From contig OY729426.1 of assembly GCA_963422365.1 (NCBI GenBank), positions 1,824,001 through 1,888,000 of the forward strand: a stretch of DNA of 64,000 nucleotides, given 5' to 3'. A program made the position numbers. Below are positions 27,001-33,000 of this stretch, in pieces. This DNA comes from Nitrospirales bacterium. GTDB lineage: Bacteria; Nitrospirota; Nitrospiria; Nitrospirales; UBA8639. How positions within the stretch are numbered: position 1 is the stretch's first letter; each line of letters begins with the position of its first letter.

Positions 27001-30000
27001 TATTCATAAACAGGCATGGACCGGCTCACTCCCTTTTTACGAATTCATAGATGTATGATGAGGTTGAGTCTATTATACAGGATTGACAATGCCGTTGGCC
27101 ATCACCTAATGAATTAAAAGTGAGGGGTGGTTGCTCTTGACGCCTTGCAGGTTTCTTCTTTAGAAACGTATAGTTTTGAAAGTTTCTTCTTATTCTAACG
27201 CGTTGGAGGGTCGCAGATGGCTGTTCTGGTAAGAACGTATCGGTTGGCAAGTGGGTTGCAACAAGTAGAACGGATTGATGATCCTGATCGCATCGAACGG
27301 TATATGAAATTGTTCGATCGTGAAGATCTAAAAAAAATTCGGACCGGAATACAGGTCAAAATTGAAAAAGATGAATGGCAACTTCTTGAAGATTAATAGC
27401 GCAATTTTTCATTGCGAGGAGTAGCCTATGGCTCTGTGGATCAATATTCGAAGATCTGTCGATGAGGCTGTTTTGCATAAAGAACGGTGCATTGAAGTTC
27501 CTTCGATTCCTACACGGTCTGATTTTTGGGAAGGCGGATGGTTTGAATATCCTGATAAAGATACGGCCTTGGACGCTCTGGAACAGGCTGGAGTCATGCG
27601 TCAAGTGAAGTGTCGGCTGTGTAAGCCCTAAGGTGTTGTCGCATGCTCACCCGTTGGTTTCCCTGTACCGGTGTCCCGGTCGTAGGGAGTAGGTGTCGGC
27701 GTGTGGAAACCTTCTATGAAACGGTAAGGGTATATGGCGGAAAAATTTGGTGGATATCGATGGGTCAAGGAGGGTTATCTTGATAATCGCACGCAAGGCG
27801 TTGTGGTCGGGAAGATGATTTTTGCCGCCCTTGGTTCGATTGAGTTTTATTTGCATGGGGATTTCAAGTCTGATATTGCCGGTCAGATTTTTTCCTTTAA
27901 GAATTCTCAATTTGCTGATGACCCGAATGCGGCATCGCGTTTGCTTGATTTAGCCAATCCCCAAATCGGCACCGTGAGTTCGATTTCCTTTGATCCGCAT
28001 CCTCTTCTTGCCCCGCATCCTTATATTGAGTGGTTTTCTCTCAAGGGCGATCATTATCGGATTGAATTACAGGAAGGTGATGCGCGGCTTCTTGATCTTG
28101 CCGAGGCCTCAGACTATACAGTGGAAAGTCGAACGATCACGCAAGCCTATGCGGGCCGGTCCGTTCATCCTCCTGCGGAAACCAAGTCTGTTGATGAAGC
28201 GTGGTTCTAGCATTGTGTAGTCGTCAACCCTGCCTTCTGGAACTGGAAGTTTTTCTCTTCCATTGACAGTCCTTTCCTCCCATCCTACAATCCCTCCCCT
28301 TATGACTGATGATCGTTTTTTGAAAGCCTGCCGCCGTGAACCCGTGGATCGGACGCCAGTATGGTTTATGCGACAAGCCGGGCGCTATATGGCGGAATAT
28401 CAGCGTATTCGGGCAAAGCATAGTATCCTCGATGTCTGTAAGATTCCGGAATTAGCTGCCGAGGTGACGCTTCAACCCATCGAACGTTTTGCCCTGGATG
28501 CTGCCATCATTTTCGCGGATATCCTTTTGCCCTTAGAGCCAATGGGGTTGCAGGTGACCTTCCGTGAAGAGGAAGGTCCAGTCATTCTTAATCCCGTGAG
28601 GCATCAAGACGACCTCACGCGGTTACGACAAGTGGAGAGGGACGCCTTTCGGTTTTCCTCCGATGCTGTGAGTTTGGCAAAAAAAATGTTGGATGGACGC
28701 GTGCCTCTCATCGGCTTTGCCGGAGCTCCGTTTACCTTGGCCAGCTATGCGATCGAGGGGAGGAGCTCACGAAGCTATCTCAACACGAAACAAATGATGT
28801 TCCATCGGCCTGCTCAGTGGCATGCCTTACTTCACAAACTTTCAGATGTGGTCATCATGTATTTAGAAAATCAAATTAGAGCAGGAGTGCAGGTTGTTCA
28901 AATTTTTGACAGTTGGGTGGGGTGCTTGTCTCCGGGTGACTATAGTGAATATGTCTTGCCGCATGTACAATCAGTGATTGATCGCTTAAAACCTGAAGAG
29001 ATTCCGATCATTTATTTTGGAACGGGCACGTCGACGCTCTTGCCTCTCATGCGCAGTGCAGGCAGCGACGTCTTGGGGCTGGATTGGCATGTTGAGCTTG
29101 ATGAAGCATGGGCTCGGATCGGGTTCGATGTTGCCGTACAAGGCAACCTCGACCCTGTGGTCTTGTTTGCGCCTCTGCCGGAGCTTGAGCGCCGCATCAA
29201 GGATATTCTGGGCAGAGCCGGGAATAGGGCAGGGCATATTTTCAATCTCGGTCATGGGATTCTCCCCCAAACCCCTGTCGATCATGTCGAGGCTGCCATT
29301 GAGTTTGTTCACAAATATAGTACTCGATCAGCTTAGCCTGAATTTCTTCGTGCTCCTTCCCGGAAACTGTGATGCATCATGGCGGCTCCTAAACGAGTAG
29401 TGATTGTTGGAGGAGGGATTTCAGGCCTCTCTGCTGCGTTTGCCTTACTGGAGCAAGCAAGAATCATGGGGAAGCCTCTTCAGTGTACGGTGGTGGAGGG
29501 GCAGGCTCGTTTTGGTGGAAAAATTCTCACGAACCGTCATGATGGATTGGTAACGGAGGGAGGTCCTGACTCATTCCTCACGACCAAACCGTCAGCTCTT
29601 GCGCTCTGTGAAAAGTTGGGGCTGACTTCGCAATTGATCAATACCAATCAAGGGAATGCTCAAACGTTTACCTATTCAAAAGGACGATTGCGCGAATTCC
29701 CGCAAGGTCTTATTTCAATGGTTCCTACGAAGGTGGGGCCCTTGTTTCATAGTGGGGTGGTCTCCTGGGCCGGCATTGCACGAATGGGAATGGATTGGGT
29801 CATTCCTGCTCGTCCCAACACGAAAGATGAGGAAACATTGGCTGAATTTTTCAGTCGACGTCTAGGTTCTGAGGCCTTTTATCGCCTCATTGAGCCTTTA
29901 GTCGCAGGGATTTACGCCGGTGATGCGAATGAGTTAAGCGTGGATGCGACTTTTCCGCAACTTGTCGAGTTGGAGCGCAAACATGGCAGTCTCCTCAAAG

Positions 30001-33000
30001 GAGCGTTGGCCATGCAACGGGCGCGATTCTCGCACAAGCCTGGTGTGACGGCTGCCCGGACCTTGTTTACAACCTTACAAGGTGGGTTGGGTGATTTAAT
30101 CACAAGGTTAACAGACAGGCTTTCCGTTGCCGGAGTGTCCCTGCGACGAGGTACAGACATGCGGACGGTGCATCCGTCCCTCGATTCCCATACTTCCCAT
30201 ACTCATCCACCGTATCAGGTTGAGTTGGAAAGGGGAGAAAAATTGGAAGCAGAGGCCGTGGTTCTTGCGACTCCTGCGTACATTTCCGCAGGCGTTCTTC
30301 GCTCTTTTGACCATGAAGCTGCGGCAGCCCTAGACGAGATTCCTTATGCCTCTACGATGACCATCTCAATGGTCTTTTCTGAACCAGCTGTCAATAATCA
30401 GCTTTGTGGCTATGGCTTTGTGGTGCCGCGAATTGAAAATCGTTCATTGATCGCGGCGACATGGTCATCAATGAAGTGGGCAGGACGAGCGCCTTCGGGT
30501 CAATGTCTGATTCGGTGTTATCTGGGCGGGCGTGGACGAGATCACTTGTTGGATTTAGACAATGCGGAATTGACGAGACGAGCCCGTGATGAGTTAAAAA
30601 CAATGATTGGCATTCAAAGCCGACCTTCCCAGGTGGAAGTGTATCGATGGCCTCGATCCATGCCCCAATATACCCGTGGACATCGGGATCGTGTGCGACG
30701 AATTCGTCAACGTGTTGCCCTTCATCCCGGACTGTATGTGACAGGGGCGGCGTATGATGGAATAGGAATTCCGGATTGCATTCGCGATGCGGAGAACACG
30801 TCTAAACTTCTGAGTGCCTATTTATGGGGGCAGGTTTCGTAACGCTCTGTTGAGCGATTCCAACAAGATTATGCCTGGGGAGGTTGGGAAAAACCAGAAT
30901 CGCGTTCGGGCTCATGTCGTGGCCCAAGGCCGAGTGCAAGGAGTGGGCTTTCGAGCGTTTCTCCAATCTCAGGCTGTCAGGCGTGGTTTGAGTGGGTGGG
31001 TGAGAAACTTGCCGGATGGTCCAGTGGAAACGGAAGTCGAAGGGCCCCAAGTTCTCGTGGATGAATTCCTCGAAACCGTCAAACGTGGGCCATCCTTAGC
31101 GTATGTTCAAGATATTCAGGTGGAGTGGATAGCCCCGAGTGCACAAGGTTCATCCTTTGAGATGGTGTATTGAGAGAGTCGCTGATGACACCAACGATAG
31201 GGAGGGAAAGGATGGTTCCAAACTTGTCCCGCTCGTGTTGCCTGTCCAGATCTCTTGGCGGTCGCCTCGGCGCAGGCTTAGGACCAACAGGGTAGGCTTT
31301 TTCAATAGCGCCCGATGAATGGGTATAGGACCTAGACCGAAAGGATTGCATATGGATTATAAAGTATTAATTCGCGAGATCTCCGATTTTCCCAAGCCCG
31401 GTGTTGTGTTTTATGACATTACAACGTTATTGAAAAATCCCGAAGGGTATCGACAGGTCATTGATGACCTCACCGTGCGCTATCGGGATGAGGCTATCAG
31501 CAAGATTGTGGGTATTGAGTCTCGAGGCTTTATATTGGGAAGCCCGTTAGCGTACAATTTGAGGACGGGGTTTGTTCCTGTCCGCAAGCCCGGCAAGCTC
31601 CCTGCCGATGTGTTTGAGGTGAAATATAATCTGGAATATGGGGCAAACTCGCTGGCTATCCATCGAGACGCCGTGACGATGGGAGAACGAGTGCTGGTGG
31701 TCGATGATCTCTTAGCGACTGGAGGAACTGCATCTGCGACCGTGTACTTATTACGGCAATTAGGCGCAGAAATTGTGGGGTGTGCCTTTATGATCGAATT
31801 GCTGTTTTTGCAAGGACGTCAAAAAATTGAGGATTGCGAGGTTTATTCCTTGATGACGTATACTTGAACTGCTATATTTTTTACCTTTAAATCTTAGGCG
31901 AAGGTCGTTATTTAGAACGATGGAGTAAAGAACAAGGGTGGTTGTTGCGTTGGAAAAGGAGACGTGAAATGGCAGGCAAATCCATAAAGAAACATGCGAC
32001 TGGAGTCGCCAAGCGTTCATCCAAAACTCCTCAGGCGAAATCGTCTTCGCCTTCCAAAAGCCAAATGATAAAATTTGCCTCGCGTTCGGTAAAAGTAAGA
32101 GTCACTGAGGACACGGCCGTGAAAAAAAAGCCCCTAGCCAAAACTCCCAAGCAGTTGCCCTCTTCGCGATCGGTGTCATTACGGAAGATTATGCTGGAAA
32201 AACGAGTCAAGCTCATGAAGGAAATTCAAAGCCAACTAGGCCAATCATTGACGGAAGAGCAGCAACGGCGGTTTGAATCGGCCATGGACAGTGGAGACCA
32301 AGCCTTGTTGGATTTAGAACGTGAAATGGGCATTTCTCTTCAAGAAAAACGCAATCGAGAACGGCAGATGATTGATGAAGCGTTGGTGAGTTTAGAAGAA
32401 GGGACCTATGGTATCTGCGTTGAGTGTGAGACTGAAATTAGCGAAAAACGACTGGCGGTTATGCCGTCTGCGAGACTCTGTGTCGAATGCCAGGAAAAAA
32501 TCGAGTTGTTTGAGAAAATTGAACGAGGAGAGCACCGGATCTAACCTTGACCAGTGACTTGTCATGGCCTATGCCCACCGCCTTCTTTTTACTCTTCTGT
32601 TGACCCTATTTTTATCTAAAATCGTTTCCCTGGATAACCTCGCCTCGTGTTGAAAAATTCTGTTGACCCCATGAAAAGTTCATTCGAGGCACGATGAAAG
32701 CTGTAGTGTTGGCCAGTGGAGGGCTTGATTCGACCGTGACGGCCGCAATGGCTCGTGACGAGGGGTACGCCCTGTATTTGCTTACGGTTCGGTATGGACA
32801 GCGCCATTACGCTGAAATTCAAAAGGCACAAGAGATTGCGGCATGGCTAGGGGCGATCGAGCATAAAATTCTTCAAGTGGATCTACACGAATTTGGTGGT
32901 TCGGCTTTAGTCGGCTCAGGAGCCATTCCGAAAAGTCGGTCGGACCAAGAACGGCAGACAGGCATTCCATCCACATATGTTCCAGCACGAAATATAATAT

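Follow-up and report, generated by a model that had tools for sequence, protein, structure and literature searches.

The hemE-hemY locus

Both porphyrin routes to haem are regarded as requiring a ferrochelatase. How is iron inserted in a bacterium that keeps the genes for the flanking steps and has no recognisable ferrochelatase gene? This question is raised by a member of the Nitrospirales family UBA8639 (assembly GCA_963422365.1, genome G000) in a window of 64,000 nucleotides (contig OY729426.1, positions 1,824,001 to 1,888,000), to which coordinates refer unless the contig is named. Specifically, hemE coding for uroporphyrinogen decarboxylase (28263..29336, + strand; PF01208/URO-D, E 2.9e-131), which has two possible starts at TTG 28263 or ATG 28302, is followed by hemY/cgoX of the coproporphyrinogen III oxidase type (29379..30842, + strand; TIGR00562, 319.7 bits versus a cut-off of 97.85). 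As described in an earlier note on this DNA, these genes (g01880 and g01881) are separated by 42 nt (29337..29378, no strand assigned), which is the site where relatives carry a cpfC/hemH gene of ~950 nt, and a search of this gap for a hemH remnant found none. The order hemE-hemH-hemY is present in 46 of the 50 relatives' loci examined. Downstream, an acylphosphatase gene (30814..31173, + strand; PF00708, E 2.2e-25) is the 3' marker of the UBA8639 gene order and is followed by apt, a dksA-like gene, queC and a cytochrome c gene, an order shared by UBA8639 loci and the gene ids of N. marina. Located 5' of hemE is g01879 (27734..28210, + strand), coding for a conserved hypothetical protein with no match to Pfam or to any other family, which we rejected as a gain replacing hemH. 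It adjoins hemE in relatives with an intact hemH as well and is therefore not a gain.

Absence of ferrochelatase from the genome and the family

A PF00762 search of the genome returned nothing even at E<=10, and a profile of 28 HemH proteins from the order, run with filters off against all six-frame ORFs of at least 50 aa, gave a best E of 1.1. The best tblastn match for HemH had an E of 0.018. A terminal direct repeat of 58.3 kb (99.8% identity) shows that the contig is a closed circle, so that hemH is not hidden in an assembly gap. Thus, the claimed lack of a ferrochelatase in this genome holds, and the reservation that a very divergent enzyme had been missed finds no support from either the order-specific profile or tblastn.

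The same is true for the family. In an order-wide draw of 401 genomes, each at least 80% complete (the tallies count G269 and G380, flagged unpublished, as one row each), PF00762 is above cut-off in none of the 105 UBA8639 genomes (family f1) versus 261 of the 295 genomes from other Nitrospirales families, as the earlier note had proposed from a smaller sample. Weak PF00762 matches (E 1e-3 to 1e-2) are present in 11 of the 105. When five of these 11 genomes were opened the best match was a biotin carboxylase in four and a small CbiX in one, and their weak matches overall comprised biotin carboxylase, an ABC-F protein, an aminotransferase and two CbiX-like proteins. We found no description of hemH loss in these bacteria in the full-text literature, of which mostly open papers were covered; passages of PMC8529089, PMC5095920 and PMC7340540 hold nothing bearing on a missing iron-insertion enzyme.

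Loss of hemH is recurrent

The loss had been pictured as a single family-wide event peculiar to UBA8639, which does not agree with the sister family, where 17 checked genomes likewise lack an intact hemH between hemE and hemY and five of these loci keep hemH remnants with differing breakpoints. This indicates that hemH loss is recurrent and not specific to UBA8639 (HemE trees were quick and FastTree trees). No unrecognised replacement gene is seen at the deletion site in 13 UBA8639 and 17 sister-family loci. In another family (f4) the operon copy of hemH is lost and a different ferrochelatase is encoded elsewhere in the genome, which suggests that the iron step still needs an enzyme; profile comparison with this f4 ferrochelatase gave nothing.

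These results bear on whether iron could enter spontaneously or on ChdC with no dedicated enzyme, a reading that we consider very unlikely. Repeated hemH loss does show that the gene is dispensable, and slow growth would lower the flux needed. However, f4 still encodes a ferrochelatase, and Shewanella lacking both of its ferrochelatases needs haemin (PMC6664582).

The other steps of the coproporphyrin route are kept, with expression in N. marina

The genome contains hemA, hemB, hemC, hemD, hemL, hemE, cgoX and a chdC-like gene, so that among the proteins of the coproporphyrin-dependent route HemE and CgoX are found and CpfC (PF00762), the penultimate-step enzyme (PMC13564367), is not. The chdC-like gene is the one PF06778 gene (contig 1798013-1798741), and the best solved matches of its product are coprohaem decarboxylases (E 1.6e-25), which narrowly precede chlorite dismutase (E 9.8e-23), with HemQ models below cut-off. 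As in Firmicutes and Actinobacteria, which use HemE, CgoX, CpfC and ChdC, hemE and cgoX form one operon and the chdC-like gene lies elsewhere; the difference is that CpfC is missing here, whereas sister lineages carry the full hemE-cpfC-cgoX operon. The proteome of N. marina, where hemE and hemY have consecutive gene ids in the order seen here, contains HemE (3-20 spectral counts), HemY (1-9) and the ChdC-like chlorite-dismutase-family protein (43-57; PMC8115632 Data Set 3).

Expression of these enzymes weighs against the earlier suggestion that haem is scavenged through a TonB haem-type receptor with the upstream genes serving another end. A TIGR01785 receptor is above cut-off in this genome but in just 11 of 74 UBA8639 genomes, and N. 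marina, a B12 auxotroph, grows in a defined medium of salts, nitrite, FeNaEDTA, trace metals and B12 (PMC8115632). Furthermore, with HemE and HemY expressed, the free coproporphyrin product would be left without an outlet. Scavenging is thus very improbable. Because the rest of the coproporphyrin route is kept, is expressed in N. marina and scavenging fails, replacement of the iron-insertion step in UBA8639 is supported.

A sirohaem route to haem is comparably doubtful, at a very low probability. It would combine CobA-HemD and the SirC-like protein, both present, with non-orthologous AhbA/B and an AhbD/NirJ2-like radical SAM protein (contig 356126-357505). This protein scores 318 bits with AhbD and 330 with NirJ2, both below the cut-off of 500, and 177 bits with AhbC versus a cut-off of 650; no second AhbC/AhbD-type protein was seen among motif-bearing ORFs. 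The AhbA/AhbB sirohaem decarboxylase family PF17805 is found in 0 of 51 genomes, with the positive control matching in three archaea, and this route would leave the retained hemE and cgoX unexplained.

Candidate chelatases

The large subunit of class I chelatases (CobN/ChlH/BtuS; PF02514) is absent from the genome and matched in one of 61 genomes. A secreted tandem CbiX-like gene with a signal-peptide-like start, in a TonB cluster (contig 1591124-1589466), was rejected as a family-wide replacement: it is interrupted by an in-frame TGA, a stop that three runs belonging to two studies also show in their contigs (one of them may be the source), and no PF01903 match was obtained in five UBA8639 genomes tested.

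A SirC/Met8p-like class III chelatase (contig 1786814-1787448) might moonlight on coproporphyrin III. Its gene is ~10 kb from the chdC-like gene, the N. marina protein has 22-31 spectral counts, and it keeps the catalytic Asp and the Pro of CysG (D104 and P106 positions, marking bifunctional dehydrogenase-chelatases). CysG, however, binds its substrate first and caps it in a site argued to exclude similar tetrapyrroles, and the protein is already employed, the sirohaem enzyme being present. We therefore regard this role as quite unlikely.

A single intact class II chelatase was found in the genome: g00528, a 176-aa CbiX-type protein with a match to PF01903 and none to PF00762. It has one chelatase domain in which H13 is invariant and H125 occurs in at least 90% of 73 homologues. 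The single-domain model (pLDDT 95.6) most resembles CfbA (Z 14.9, rmsd 2.6, 118 aligned), followed by CbiX (14.8), SirB (14.1) and CpfC (10.5), and an ESM Atlas search returned only CbiX-named clusters. The protein g00528 belongs to the superfamily of CpfC and aligns by profile to its C-terminal domain (prob. 61%, E 8e-5), with a DPY motif in common. It differs from CpfC/HemH, a two-domain monomer of ~310 aa with a His plus Glu metal site, in having one domain and in H125, which occupies the column of the invariant Glu265 in the order's CpfC.

Modelled as a homodimer, g00528 scores 0.91 versus 0.00 for the best control, with a partner pLDDT of at least 89 and runs agreeing in at least 88% of contacts. 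The score mark is reached by 20 of 30 solved pairs and one of 23 single chains, and since solved dimers of this kind exist the pass may reflect memory. The predicted form is a symmetric homodimer like CfbA/CbiXS, with two His (H13, H125) per subunit. Differences from these small chelatases include the length of g00528, its own WPRT/DPY/NEFC motifs, the lack of a cob/cfb cluster, a host without corrin-ring synthesis, and an extra helical hairpin of ~45 residues (H22-38, H44-54) that in the model reaches across the dimer and could form a porphyrin lid which small chelatases lack. Known members of the CfbA/CbiXS group reject coproporphyrin III; specifically, A. fulgidus CbiXS and wild-type M. jannaschii CfbA do not insert nickel into coproporphyrin III or protoporphyrin IX (PMC11568245).

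Distribution and context of g00528

The g00528-type CbiX is kept in 94 of the 105 UBA8639 genomes and in 16 of the 17 genomes of the sister family whose hemH deletion was checked. Neither hemH nor CbiX is found in 11 of the 105. For five of these the absence was traced to contig boundaries or to larger regions that are missing: two contig ends bracket the cluster exactly in G160, the contig ends at or before it in G092 and G214, and both of its 20-kb flanks are missing as well in G124 and G192. The other six were not so traced, nor was the absence of CbiX in G309 (94% complete, 360 contigs), where hemH is a remnant. In other families of the order CbiX is not significantly more frequent where hemH is missing (30 of 34) than where it is present (216 of 261; Fisher p 0.62, or 0.11 with f1). 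Its occurrence in relatives that retain hemH had been counted against g00528, but presence across the order fits repeated, independent hemH loss.

The neighbours of this CbiX are RudS/ybgA, photolyase, a CarH-like gene, TIGR01777, a cfa-like gene and glutathione peroxidase; in the present genome g00528 is kept where CarH and photolyase were not found. It is 93.8% identical to its G021 counterpart (RudS 86.0%, IleS 93.4%). The CbiX/RudS divergence ratio is 0.58 and 0.62 in hemH-negative sets versus 0.81 in the hemH-positive set, which we do not use as evidence because the latter set has six loci and pairs are not independent. In N. marina the 169-aa CbiX is present in six of six cultures (11-17 spectral counts) and photolyases have counts of 0-4 (PMC8115632 Data Set 3).

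CbiX adjoins hemE in G185, and in three Manganitrophus-related genomes it lies two genes away from chdC. None was found inside a hemE-hemY operon in 80 genome and 80 metagenome loci, one of which has hemB 1.9 kb away. Among 121 genomes of the phylum of G447 (recorded as Elusimicrobia), 10 of 11 hemY loci have an adjoining hemH and no such CbiX; the eleventh, G447, lacks hemH and is the sole CbiX carrier, a single case that was found via its CbiX. In G441 and G450 hemE adjoins hemY, PF00762 is absent and a g00528-type CbiX is present. Of 50 distant genomes that carry this CbiX family, 39 gave no hemE match, and the wider family is therefore not a dedicated haem enzyme.

As regards other roles, the genome has no precorrin or corrin-ring methyltransferases besides CobA and thus no host cobalamin/F430 pathway for g00528 to serve, and 41 of 44 hemH-positive genomes without this CbiX still encode sirohaem enzymes. 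Judged from gene content, no other job for g00528 is evident here, and it appears not to be needed for B12 or sirohaem.

Discussion

In these genomes cpfC is missing and the other genes of the route are kept; from these observations, together with the fold, distribution and context of g00528, we infer its substrate, metal, activity and history. Haem would be made by HemE, CgoX, iron insertion and ChdC, with g00528 inserting iron into coproporphyrin III in place of CpfC. The enzyme would have originated in a light/photo-oxidative stress cluster, metallating photosensitising free porphyrin; its presence across the order would have made cpfC redundant, leading to many deletions, the earliest and family-wide one in UBA8639. 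We rate this coproporphyrin route without CpfC, with g00528 as candidate iron chelatase, as the best explanation, at even chances. A stronger formulation falls slightly short of even: that a single-domain homodimeric chelatase of the ancestral CbiXS/CfbA type, fitted with a helical lid, works as a coproporphyrin III ferrochelatase. On this reading it would have come from a photo-oxidative stress cluster, would replace CpfC/HemH without being its orthologue, would have allowed hemH to be lost time and again among the Nitrospirales and also in three or more genomes of other lineages, and would be a living model of the ferrochelatase's half-molecule ancestor. Thus, of the earlier proposal of an unrecognised, non-orthologous chelatase, the replacement stands and g00528 has circumstantial support, whereas scavenging and a single loss are not supported.

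There is a parallel for a chelatase in such a setting. In Shewanella the RpoE2 regulon comprises ybgA-phrB-cfa and pgpD-hemH2, and hemH2 makes up for lost hemH1 (PMC4336711, PMC6664582). HemH2 is thus co-regulated with ybgA, phrB, cfa and glutathione peroxidase, the neighbours of our candidate; however, HemH2 is a true HemH paralogue that backs up HemH1, whereas the cluster chelatase considered here is no orthologue of HemH and the housekeeping gene has been lost. A Pseudomonas hemH may lie in a LitR-photolyase cluster, a placement that we do not use as evidence.

Alternatively, another unrecognised order-wide protein may insert iron, with the small CbiX metallating sirohydrochlorin or a corrinoid in the light cluster. 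This shares the need for iron insertion with the reading that we prefer and is consistent with the weak complementarity of hemH and CbiX and with G309, which lacks both. It also has a precedent in B. fragilis, which makes haem from protoporphyrin and iron without a HemH homologue by an unidentified ferrochelatase, and where a cbiK knock-out leaves haem-iron use unaffected (PMC6460266, where a ferrochelatase role for uroS/yifB finds no support, neither name being mentioned). Bacteroides, however, depends on outside porphyrin, metallates protoporphyrin IX and encodes CobN-like BtuS proteins; the bacterium considered here has the whole upstream pathway and no CobN. The deletion sites of 13 UBA8639 and 17 sister-family loci show no gene for such a protein, CbiX would be left with no evident role and the G447 pattern argues against it, so that we consider this alternative unlikely.

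This family of marine-type nitrite oxidisers, including a cultured type species, thus has a pathway hole in which the flanking steps are kept and expressed and the ferrochelatase is gone, and this hole comes with a short list of candidates. If g00528 is not the enzyme, there is an unknown iron-insertion enzyme to find in a culturable organism. If it is, ancestral homodimeric chelatases would gain a new specificity, a duplication-and-fusion origin of CpfC would be supported, genome-based calls of haem auxotrophy would be corrected and light-stress regulons would be tied to haem synthesis.

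Absence of hemH from the hemE-hemY junction

The 3' end of hemE lies at window position 29336 and hemY (cgoX, coproporphyrinogen III oxidase type) starts at 29379, and the 42 nt that separate the two genes in the window contain no trace of the ferrochelatase gene hemH (cpfC), as the earlier note had described. A search of the genome under study (G000) with PF00762 gave zero matches even at E≤10, and a profile built from 28 sister-family HemH proteins, searched against its six-frame ORFs with filters off, reached a best E of 1.1. The chromosome is closed, since the contig ends overlap by a terminal direct repeat of 58.3 kb at 99.8% identity (contig positions 1-58333 and 2437343-2495695, an untrimmed circular overlap). 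Genes within this repeat, which includes a long internally repetitive region, are counted twice.

Across 401 genomes of the order, PF00762 exceeded the cut-off in 0/105 genomes of the family (UBA8639) versus 261/295 in the three other families (tallies that include G269 and G380, flagged unpublished, with one row each), which bears out the claim that a family ferrochelatase is missing. The claimed gene order of the relatives also stood, with hemH between hemE and hemY in 46 of the 50 hemH loci examined; each of the 13 family loci inspected has hemE followed directly by hemY and gave no match to hemH. The pathway hole is real and repeated. No description of hemH loss was found in the full-text literature searched, and a 2026 review names no replacement enzyme where it treats CpfC (PMC13564367).

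Recurrent loss of hemH across the order

The loss is not a peculiarity of the family, as had been supposed. Outside it, 34 genomes lack an above-cut-off PF00762 match; of the 24 examined, 17 have an assembled hemE-hemY junction without intact hemH, and in the remaining seven hemY was not found or lies at a contig start. Five genomes retain hemH remnants that differ in their ends: G135 and G393 keep an N-terminal part, and G287, G395 and G309 a C-terminal one. The remnants (loci L108, L112, L109, L114 and L284) show five different breakpoints within one genus, a picture of gene loss in progress. A FastTree phylogeny of HemE plus HemY, read without a formal test (a quick HemE tree was also built), scatters hemH-deleted genomes among relatives that have hemH: both G286 and G149 lie among hemH-positive genera, and the g25 cases are found at several positions. 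Loss of hemH is recurrent in the order. In another family, f4, hemE is joined to hemY in 2/3 loci, and a different ferrochelatase of the NF000689 type, ~30% identical to the operon type, is encoded elsewhere at unrelated loci (L048:9543-10577 in G004; L049 in G012). Here the operon hemH has been replaced by a foreign copy.

Haem demand and the retained pathway

G000 keeps hemA, hemB, hemC and hemL (read from translations), cobA-hemD (also by NCBIfam), hemE and cgoX, and the best solved matches of its single PF06778 gene are coprohaem decarboxylases. A CxxCH motif occurs in 41 of its ORFs, chance and non-cytochrome cases included. These organisms still need haem and probably make it. The pathway resembles a coproporphyrin-dependent one in its mode of working, yet departs from that class in lacking CpfC.

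A cultured nitrite oxidiser, N. marina Nb-295, bears on this point; UBA8639 is given as its closest MAG. In its Data Set 3, uroporphyrinogen decarboxylase and protoporphyrinogen oxidase have consecutive gene ids; next come apt, a regulator of the DksA family, queC and a cytochrome, which is the gene order of the window, and the word 'chelatase' appears in one row per data set, for the precorrin-2 enzyme (PMC8115632). From this published gene listing we infer that N. marina lacks hemH. The earlier note had also considered that haem might be scavenged through a TonB receptor. A haem-type receptor is above cut-off in only 11/74 family genomes, and N. marina is described as growing in the dark in mineral medium with salts, nitrite, FeNaEDTA, trace metals and B12, the proteome cultures having been grown in 70% natural seawater (PMC8115632). 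Given the receptor count and growth in mineral medium, scavenging cannot account for the family.

Other known routes and chelatases

AhbA/B was found in 0/51 genomes, and one AhbD/NirJ2-like radical SAM protein was found, under all cut-offs. An operon at G000 contig positions 354047-358032 (L128) encodes a universal-stress/rubredoxin protein carrying DPOR-B-like C-terminal repeats, a radical SAM protein resembling AhbD/NirJ2 and a membrane protein resembling CopD, and is possibly an oxygen-independent coprohaem decarboxylase module. CobN/ChlH occurs in 1/61 genomes and not in G000; this sole gene (G036:C1:2391945-2395196, L318) lies ~7 kb from the haem-type receptor of its genome, an arrangement reminiscent of BtuS/HmuS systems.

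G000 has two class II chelatase-like genes, g00528 and a secreted-type tandem CbiX-like gene in a TonB cluster (contig positions 1591124-1589466, outside the window; L132, L002), where its neighbours are a spermidine-synthase-like gene and a haem-type TonB receptor. The tandem gene was rejected as the family-wide replacement, being broken by an in-frame TGA confirmed in the contigs of three runs. An intact 600-aa form is present in G164 (L038), and the protein may serve in the periplasm to remove metal or to bind tetrapyrroles.

The small CbiX-type chelatase g00528

The g00528 protein has 176 aa and PF01903 as its sole match. Its AlphaFold model (pLDDT 95.6) shows a single chelatase domain in which a helical hairpin follows the first strand as an insertion, and is closest to CfbA (Z 14.9, rmsd 2.6, 118 aligned), followed by a CbiX (14.8) and SirB (14.1); against the C-terminal domain of B. 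subtilis CpfC it gives Z 10.5 (rmsd 2.9, 132 aligned). This places g00528 with CbiXS/CfbA-type proteins, outside the HemH family. Among 73 homologues H13 is invariant and H125, W56-P57-R58, D63-P64 and N90-E91-F92-C93 are conserved at ≥90%. The profile aligns to the C-terminal domain of the order's CpfC, with DPY in common and H125 on an invariant Glu. A homodimer is predicted with a score of 0.91 (best control 0.00), a mark reached by 20/30 solved pairs and 1/23 single chains, and like dimers are already solved; the predicted interface comprises hairpin residues 22-37, DPY and both His regions.

Small CbiX is present in 94/105 family genomes, in 236/271, 8/20 and 2/4 genomes of the other families, and in 16/17 checked hemH-deletion genomes outside the family. 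Its cluster includes RudS (DUF523-DUF1722), photolyase, a CarH-like regulator, TIGR01777, cfa-like genes and glutathione peroxidase (some labels from sequence), with RudS at 28/30 and CarH at 6/30 of the closest loci. CarH and photolyase matches are absent from G000; small CbiX is kept while its neighbours go. RudS genes are described as often lying within light-responsive operons (PMC11417400), the Shewanella RpoE2 regulon as including ybgA-phrB-cfa and pgpD-hemH2 (PMC4336711), and hemH2 as compensating for loss of hemH1 in Shewanella (PMC6664582). N. marina expresses a CbiX of 169 aa, encoded two gene ids away from a DUF523 protein, with 11-17 counts in 6/6 cultures (PMC8115632).

In G006, small CbiX lies between near-identical copies of a ~330-aa gene, a repeat that breaks assemblies. 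This gene, which small CbiX often abuts (L307:6047-9087 in G006, L121, L063), is a putative nitrite oxidoreductase gamma-subunit gene.

Outside the order, 3/11 hemE-positive genomes with g00528-type CbiX have no PF00762 match and hemE adjoining hemY. One, G447, belongs to a phylum in which 11 of 121 genomes have hemY; ten of these have adjacent hemH and no g00528-type CbiX, and the eleventh, G447, has no hemH and is the only carrier of such a CbiX. Separately, HemE carries a fused N-terminal uroporphyrinogen-III-synthase-like domain (~650 aa, labelled from sequence) at L239 (G441) and L240 (G447), both hemH-less and of other lineages. In Dehalococcoidia loci L176 and L203 a member of the same CbiX family neighbours a MerR-like gene together with either one or two radical SAM genes of AhbD-like type. 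Other members (P0149, P0191, P0219, P0132) have a fusion partner, namely an MFS transporter, a domain of haem-oxygenase-like fold (ABM) or a beta-propeller/CARDB protein, or are tandem duplications, a form that scores weakly with PF00762 (E 5.6e-6).

A B12 job for g00528 is not evident, corrin methyltransferases being absent from G000. Nor is a sirohaem-synthesis job evident, because the separate SirC/Met8-like protein keeps the Asp and Pro positions tied to bifunctional chelatases (PMC7018833) and 41/44 hemH-positive genomes without g00528-type CbiX (44 of 45 covered) encode sirohaem enzymes.

Several results speak against g00528. Complementarity of hemH and CbiX is not significant outside the family (Fisher p 0.62), nor when the family is included (p 0.11), and related genomes are not independent. 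Eleven family genomes, and also G309, have neither gene. Five of the eleven were traced to contig ends or missing flanks, leaving the other six and G309 as apparent exceptions: in G160 the cluster position coincides with a break between two contigs (start of C7, end of C47), the G214 contig stops within the left flank, both flanks are missing from G124 and G192, and the G092 contig breaks off inside the repeated gene behind CarH, where closed G006, with the same arrangement, continues into CbiX. Neither A. fulgidus CbiXS nor wild-type CfbA inserts nickel into coproporphyrin III, though a single substitution makes CfbA active on coproporphyrin I (PMC11568245). A hemE match is absent in 39/50 distant carriers, many anaerobic and incomplete (50 of 80 loci covered), and the small CbiX family was never seen inside a haem operon among the loci searched. 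Bacteroides fragilis shows that a ferrochelatase outside the HemH family can go unrecognised (PMC6460266).

On balance we give g00528 an even chance of being the iron-inserting enzyme. Iron insertion by some means other than HemH is likely in these organisms, and the dispensability of hemH across the order points to a backup that was already widespread, rather than to a family-specific gain.
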